This document shows positions 4,633 to 5,031 of a DNA stretch of 64,000 nt, one piece after another (the stretch's first letter is position 1; the number at the start of each line of letters is the position of its first letter). Both the position numbers and the translations under genes were made by a program. The notes under the pieces were generated by a model. It searched no databases and was not told the origin of the DNA. It saw nothing but the letters and a program-made list of their open reading frames with translations. The stretch lies in assembly GCF_000027125.1 (NCBI RefSeq), contig NC_017626.1; one strand, given 5' to 3'. The stretch is from Escherichia coli 042 (GTDB lineage Bacteria; Pseudomonadota; Gammaproteobacteria; Enterobacterales; Enterobacteriaceae).

Positions 4633-5031
4633 ATGCGGGTATTCAAAACAAAACTCATTCGCCTGCAACTTACAGCAGAGGAACTTGAAGCGTTAACGGC
4701 GGATTTTATTTCCTATAAGCGTGACGGTGTTTTGCCAGATATATTTGGTCGCGATGCACTCTACGACGACTCGTTTACCTGGCCATTAATCAAATTTGAG
4801 CGAGTTGCTCATATTCATCTGGCAAATTAGAATAATCCATTTCCGCCACAGTTGCGCCAATTCAGCAGAACGAATGACGAAGCGCATTTGGTATATTGTC
4901 AGGGTGCGTTTGATGAGCAAGCATGGTTGCTCATTGCCATTCTGAAACCTGAACCTCATAAACTGGCTCGAGATAACAACCAAATGCATAAAATTGGGAA
5001 AATGGCAGAAGCGTTTCGCATGCGTTTTTGA
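4633..5031 (+). pseudogene. yafO: yafO toxin gene interrupted by an in-frame amber codon at 4828-4830
   Basis: The ORF stops after 65 codons (…HIHLAN, TAG), but the same frame continues without further stops for 66 codons (NNPFPPQLRQFSRTNDEAHLVYCQGAFDEQ...MRF) to TGA at 5029-5031. Total 399 nt, the length I expect for full-length yafO. Confidence 0.6.

Follow-up and report, generated by a model that had tools for sequence, protein, structure and literature searches.

The YafO toxins of Escherichia coli K-12 and of APEC inhibit growth through ribosome-dependent mRNA cleavage and are neutralised by the antitoxin YafN, and the yafNO pair is transcribed from a promoter of its own, which is autoregulated (PMC2814082, PMC11758553). 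About half of the E. coli strains lack yafNO, as a result of ATGA-mediated deletion that took place at least three times (Gutierrez et al. 2011, PMC3105422), and this repeated loss indicates that the module is dispensable. An avian pathogenic strain was reported to show less persistence and virulence once yafNO was deleted (PMC11758553), which makes strains that are naturally yafO-null relevant; the amber strains described below offer precisely such a natural experiment, being yafO-null and yafN-positive.

The window analysed here, a 64-kb stretch of the E. coli 042 chromosome, carries a yafNO locus with the same gene order, spacing and LexA box as that of K-12, and both loci encode YafN and YafP at full length. 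The difference lies in the toxin gene, since K-12 has GAG at codon 66 of yafO and encodes 132 residues, whereas the window has TAG at this codon and encodes 65 of the 132. Very probably this is a naturally occurring nonsense null allele, in effect a pseudogene, which leaves yafN as an orphan. The flanks of the operon also differ, with a truncated lafU and remnants of rtcB-prfH in K-12 as opposed to the window, where lafU has its full length and rtcB and prfH are both intact.

The dinB-yafNOP operon and the amber codon in yafO

The order dinB-yafN-yafO-yafP was confirmed in the window, with yafO directly 3' of yafN, and is collinear with K-12, M-17 and 118UI (all features of the operon and its immediate flanks lie on the plus strand). 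The first gene, dinB (3230-4285), is intact in the list of open reading frames (ORFs), codes for the 351 aa of DNA polymerase IV, and owes its label to the annotation of the collinear loci in 118UI, K-12 and M-17. A pattern search predicts a LexA (SOS) box 5' of dinB at 3198-3213 (CTGTATACTTTACCAG, resembling CTGT-N8-ACAG), which overlaps a promoter-like site obtained from a consensus scan (3179-3206). Gene order and predicted box are thus both in place, and agree with the preliminary description, which had assigned the interrupted gene to a LexA-regulated dinB-yafNOP operon; the regulation itself is to be taken as predicted. Another promoter-like site, TGGAAA-18-TATGAT (4257-4286, consensus scan only), lies just 5' of yafN, and a search of the dinB-yafN spacer for inverted repeats that could serve as a YafN operator found none. 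The antitoxin gene yafN (4337-4630) is an intact ORF of 97 aa recognised by the NF007300 profile, and its stop codon (4628-4630) is followed 2 nt further on by the yafO ATG at 4633. At the other end, yafP (5041-5493), an intact gene for a GNAT acetyltransferase of 150 aa assigned from its ORF and the NF007338 profile, displays no obvious Shine-Dalgarno sequence.

Upstream of the operon lies lafU (about 2236-3159), and downstream of it rtcB, coding for an RNA ligase (about 5684-6823), and prfH, coding for release factor H (about 6820-7434), all three assigned from the window ORFs and annotated relatives. The intact rtcB-prfH pair (5684-7434) directly follows yafP, while the K-12 copies are truncated remnants. 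On the upstream side, 641-3159 holds lateral-flagella (Flag-2) genes, namely a FliA/WhiG-type sigma factor, motA and the full-length lafU, where the K-12 counterpart retains only a shortened lafU beside an flhA fragment. Farther along the window, a tRNA-Thr(CGT) gene (16148-16223) is followed by a C4 antisense RNA (17110-17198) and isrK (17221-17299), both on the minus strand, and then by a minus-strand ORF of 1069 aa (17403-20612); this region has the appearance of a P4-type prophage or island situated at the tRNA gene, and in related genomes it contains a reverse-transcriptase gene. An Rfam IS009 RNA match (32546-32746, 190.7 bits) adjoins an ORF of 204 aa (31926-32540).

The yafO frame starts at ATG 4633 and proceeds through 65 sense codons to TAG at 4828-4830, i.e. 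codon 66, beyond which 66 further sense codons lead to TGA at 5029-5031, for a total of 399 nt. The gene is hence divided into a 5' fragment of 65 codons plus the amber (4633-4830) and a 3' remnant of 66 open codons plus the original TGA (4831-5031). Direct reading of the window bears out what had been described from the sequence in this respect, and the suggestion that 399 nt is the full size of yafO holds as well, since the alignment with K-12 yafO shows 98.7% identity and zero indels. The sole slip is a trivial one concerning the gap between yafO and yafP, given as 10 nt, which is actually 9 nt (5032-5040).

Window and K-12 yafO differ at five sites over the 399-nt alignment, none of them an indel, and the only difference within codon 66 is a T in the window for a G in K-12 at gene position 196, turning GAG (Glu66) into TAG. 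Alignment with other strains identifies the amber as premature, as a sense codon occupies position 66 in each of the E. coli genes compared (K-12, BL21, O157:H7, ST648, M-17 and N3). This sense codon had been expected to be GAG or CAG, which is right for K-12, with GAG, and wrong for the nearest intact alleles, which have GTG (Val). In all, the codon is GAG in K-12, GTG in BL21, O157:H7, ST648 and M-17, GTA in N3 and TAG in the window, so that its three positions all vary within E. coli, though yafO is otherwise 98-99% conserved. Evenly spaced sampling of the ranked matches gives an estimate, as opposed to a count, of ~60% GTG-type and ~30% GAG-type alleles. The reason for such polymorphism is found in the family alignment, where residues 65-69 form the most variable stretch of YafO, position 66 being occupied by E, V, A, T, D, G or H, within a Pro/Asn-rich segment (residues 65-73).

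Consequences for toxin, antitoxin and yafP

The Pfam domain YafO_toxin (PF13957) spans residues 27-130 of the conceptual read-through protein, and the amber at codon 66 removes about 62% of it, the positions corresponding to residues 66-130 being left in the 3' remnant. Aligning 24 full-length members of the family (53-98% identity) gave 30 invariant columns, of which 16 fall beyond residue 66, namely Q76, T80, H85, L86, Y88, C89, L99 and L100, followed by P106, H109, A112, N115, M118, A125, F128 and R129. Profile scores tell the same story. The YafO equivalog model NF007377 (NCBIfam) has its cut-off at 153 bits. The 65-aa product, which matches profile positions 2-66 of 132, reaches 113 bits (E 1e-32) and the ORF of 59 aa that starts at a downstream TTG (4852-5031) scores 105.3 bits (E 3e-30), both under the cut-off, and the conceptual read-through protein, with 245.9 bits, is alone above it. 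Judged as a member of the YafO family, the gene therefore occupies the orthologous position, and its encoded product falls below the family cut-off and lacks the uninterrupted ORF of ~132 codons. No structural counterpart could be drawn upon, as a sequence search of the PDB returned no YafO structure and only a spurious match to a designed repeat (E 0.04), and the AlphaFold2 model built on the 24-sequence alignment (mean pLDDT 46.5) was too poor to tell what parts of the structure disappear and was discarded.

The sequence of events that we propose is simple. The amber at codon 66 would end translation after 65 residues, and the resulting product, with about 60% of YafO_toxin and half of the invariant residues missing, would provide no active ribosome-dependent mRNA interferase; the extent of the domain loss is what leads us to infer that the 65-aa product is inactive. 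Since yafN, upstream, as well as dinB and yafP are intact, the operon carries an orphan antitoxin. Considered as a type II pair, the locus has an intact antitoxin and no intact cognate toxin, and, going by its sequence, is probably best regarded as a toxin pseudogene with an antitoxin left orphaned beside it.

The integrity of yafN, part of the preliminary description, is confirmed by its ORF of 97 aa and by the NF007300 match, which covers 97/97 positions with 196.7 bits (cut-off 99). Window and strain 118UI are base-for-base identical across 3683-5264, and the YafN accession of 118UI, WP_000554757.1, is shared with BL21 and O157:H7, both of which have an intact yafO; the antitoxin is hence unaltered. 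It should be noted that names clash in PGAP/NCBIfam, where YafN (NF007300) is a 'type I toxin-antitoxin system antitoxin' and its partner YafO is 'type II'. Eight yafO matches in the search of RefSeq E. coli genomes lie on plasmids, and a chromosome left with an orphan yafN could in principle neutralise the YafO made from such a plasmid, in line with the anti-addiction idea.

YafP is likewise complete, its full length matching NF007338 with 323.5 bits (cut-off 146). The lack of a Shine-Dalgarno sequence in front of yafP, also noted by Gutierrez et al. 2011 (PMC3105422), together with a start that lies 9 nt beyond the original TGA of yafO, suggests that yafP translation probably depends on ribosomes finishing yafO. 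As a side effect, the amber allele may therefore reduce yafP translation.

Distribution and origin of the amber allele

Among 5,426 complete RefSeq E. coli genomes, 2,843 have yafO, with 95-100% identity and no indels. At least 60 complete genomes are identical to the window yafO at 399/399 positions, and 141 records of RefSeq complete genomes contain the exact 81-nt context of the amber, in one case as a partial alignment only. The genomes with this allele originate in many countries, from water as well as from humans, chickens, ducks, cattle and wild birds, and one of the strains is labelled 'O15:H18 ST69'. On public contigs (NCBI, ENA, JGI and Logan assemblies) the exact 65-aa product was found at least 1000 times and the 59-aa TTG-initiated downstream ORF on 992 contigs. 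The preliminary description had mentioned a sequencing error as a possible cause of the TAG, and in general a single-base substitution in one record can indeed be a sequencing or assembly error; that the whole gene is the same in at least 60 complete genomes sequenced independently, with ~140 sharing the context and at least 1000 contigs the product, leaves this reading practically no chance. The amber allele is real, widespread and inherited, a natural null and not an artefact, and serves as the standard form of yafO in a large E. coli group, ST69-labelled strains among them.

It is also already known to RefSeq annotation. In strain 118UI, whose 399 nt are identical, PGAP labels yafO a pseudogene on account of an 'internal stop' and treats yafN and yafP as normal genes, in support of the earlier suggestion of a nonsense-inactivated yafO beside an intact yafN. 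A search of full-text literature found no paper explicitly describing the codon-66 amber. As such, the case is one of ordinary toxin-antitoxin decay that involves no new mechanism.

The amber haplotype is C24, A57, G141, TAG and T273, and the nearest intact alleles, for example that of M-17, with three differences, carry GTG. When GAG was restored in the window allele and the result used as query, none of the 5,426 genomes gave a 100% match, the best matches being the amber alleles (99.7%) followed by GTG alleles (99.5%); nor does any of these genomes have, on the same haplotype, an intact allele that is one mutation away. Given that the nearest intact alleles are GTG and that no one-step precursor occurs, the TAG arose either by a tandem GT to TA change or in two steps via an unsampled intermediate.

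The surroundings of the gene point to recombination. Between the window and genomes of the 118UI type there are 68 differences in 1780-3682 and a single one, at 5265, in 3683-8031, a contrast that indicates a putative recombination breakpoint inside dinB, at about 3683. Queries of 25 kb and 7.6 kb (600-8200) taken from the window yielded no full-length match of at least 99% among RefSeq complete E. coli genomes, and the best full-length matches, again amber genomes, reached only 98.8%. Two metagenomic contigs (L012 and L013) have TAG66 within a K-12-like operon, their yafN showing 1 difference from K-12 versus 7 from the window and their yafP 5 versus 16. Over the 1,157 nt of yafN-yafO-yafP (1205-2361 in L012) both differ from the intact, GTG-bearing Ecol_316 (L015) only at yafO positions 196, 197 and 223, and at all three, the last of which lies 26 nt downstream of codon 66, they have the states of the window. 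The simplest reading is that these contigs may have acquired the amber through a short recombination patch of 28-217 bp; an independent tandem mutation is possible. A further locus (L014) is a third mosaic carrying the amber, and overall the flanking backgrounds with this same TAG number at least three or four, among which it was probably carried by short-tract homologous recombination. This presence on several recombinant backgrounds and the two bases that separate the TAG from the nearest intact alleles are the only mildly unusual points of the case.

Alternative readings and other losses of YafO

The background level of UAG read-through in E. coli is low, of the order of 1e-4 to 1e-3. An allele that is read through, by virtue of a suppressor tRNA or of the codon context, would supply a low, attenuated dose of full-length YafO, and such a reading could draw on the frame past the TAG, which is wholly open and without a second lesion, on the two differences found downstream among amber haplotypes (positions 315 and 366), both synonymous, and on the persistence of a common allele on several backgrounds. 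The intact downstream half fits a young pseudogene as well as continued constraint, and two substitutions have no statistical power to separate them; absence of further decay is moreover expected, as nearly all copies are still 100% identical, i.e. the allele is young. An amber suppressor, raised as an alternative in the preliminary description, did not find support in the window or, as regards the supE type, in related genomes. The 64-kb window holds no tRNA with a CUA anticodon, its sole tRNA being the tRNA-Thr(CGT), and in the amber genome 118UI the cluster metT-leuW-glnU-glnW-metU-glnV-glnX has both tRNA-Gln(CUG) genes, glnV and glnX, with the wild-type CTG anticodon. The exact supE (CUA) allele of glnV occurs in 155 records, and the 60 of these that were listed are K-12-type laboratory strains or similar genomes of 4.5-4.8 Mb, with no overlap with the 60 listed amber genomes. 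Some 140 genomes of varied source would each need a suppressor, and the traces of toxin that basal read-through might yield would be neutralised by YafN. We thus hold read-through to be extremely improbable.

A functional role of the fragments fares little better. The 65-aa peptide might still bind YafN and modulate autoregulation, or re-initiation at TTG 4852, 21 nt past the amber, might yield the second part of a complementing split toxin; both fragments are well conserved and match the YafO profile strongly (see the E-values above), and the break falls in the variable Pro/Asn-rich stretch, plausibly a loop. Yet no Shine-Dalgarno-like sequence precedes the TTG, residues 66-73 would be absent from a reassembled toxin, and PMC3105422, PMC2814082 and PMC11758553 report no active YafO fragments. 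That other lineages delete yafNO or stop yafO elsewhere speaks for tolerated loss and not for remodelling, and makes functional fragments very unlikely.

Other disruptions of the gene are consistent with a null allele. A second yafO amber, at codon 90 (Q90, CAG to TAG), was found on 57 contigs, metagenomes included (L009-L011, locus 1768-1770), and shorter YafO variants with divergent C-terminal tails were seen at the protein level, tails that suggest frameshifts. In strain ST648 (L006), which has an intact yafO, it is yafP that is annotated as frameshifted, another case of piecemeal decay of the operon. YafO would hence have been lost in several independent ways, as fits a dispensable chromosomal module that decays toxin-first. 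Whether more than tolerance is at work can be asked: the presence of the amber on several backgrounds, the codon-90 amber, the apparent frameshifts and the at least three yafNO deletions would together point to recurrent selection. That the amber is a favoured toxin-off allele spreading by short-patch recombination, or else that this hypervariable codon of the Pol IV operon is a hotspot of tandem GT to TA change, appears unlikely; were the allele favoured, recurrent selection against YafO activity would be implied, e.g. in extraintestinal or ST69-type lifestyles. Taken as a null allele of a dispensable chromosomal module, the amber yafO is a textbook instance of toxin-first decay that matters little alone, and a convenient marker for a large and clinically relevant E. 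coli group, ST69-labelled strains included.

Three known situations compare most closely with this locus. In the yafNO-deleted operon, where dinB and yafP are fused through ATGA (e.g. CFT073; PMC3105422), YafO is likewise missing and dinB and yafP are kept; there toxin and antitoxin were deleted together, whereas in the window a point nonsense change removes the toxin alone and leaves yafN and the 3' remnant behind. The codon-90 amber resembles that of the window in being a nonsense interruption of yafO within the same operon, whose yafN and yafP are likewise intact, and differs in the codon affected, in being a single-step mutation and in a haplotype that is otherwise identical to K-12. Finally, an mBio 2023 survey counts among its novel antitoxin markers the YafO-domain 'partner' clusters 76P and 77P, found 'exclusively among ST69' (PMC10790755). 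These are YafO-domain ORFs situated beside a YafO-domain hit in ST69 only, which is the pattern that a split yafO would give; the survey treats them as candidate antitoxins and mentions no stop codon. As a split yafO is called as two ORFs and an ST69-labelled genome has the amber, 76P and 77P are, going by their description, most simply explained as the two halves of this split yafO. What had apparently been taken for ST69-specific 'novel antitoxins' would thus be the halves of a toxin pseudogene, a caution for prediction pipelines, given that on about 1000 contigs the split toxin is called as two separate ORFs.
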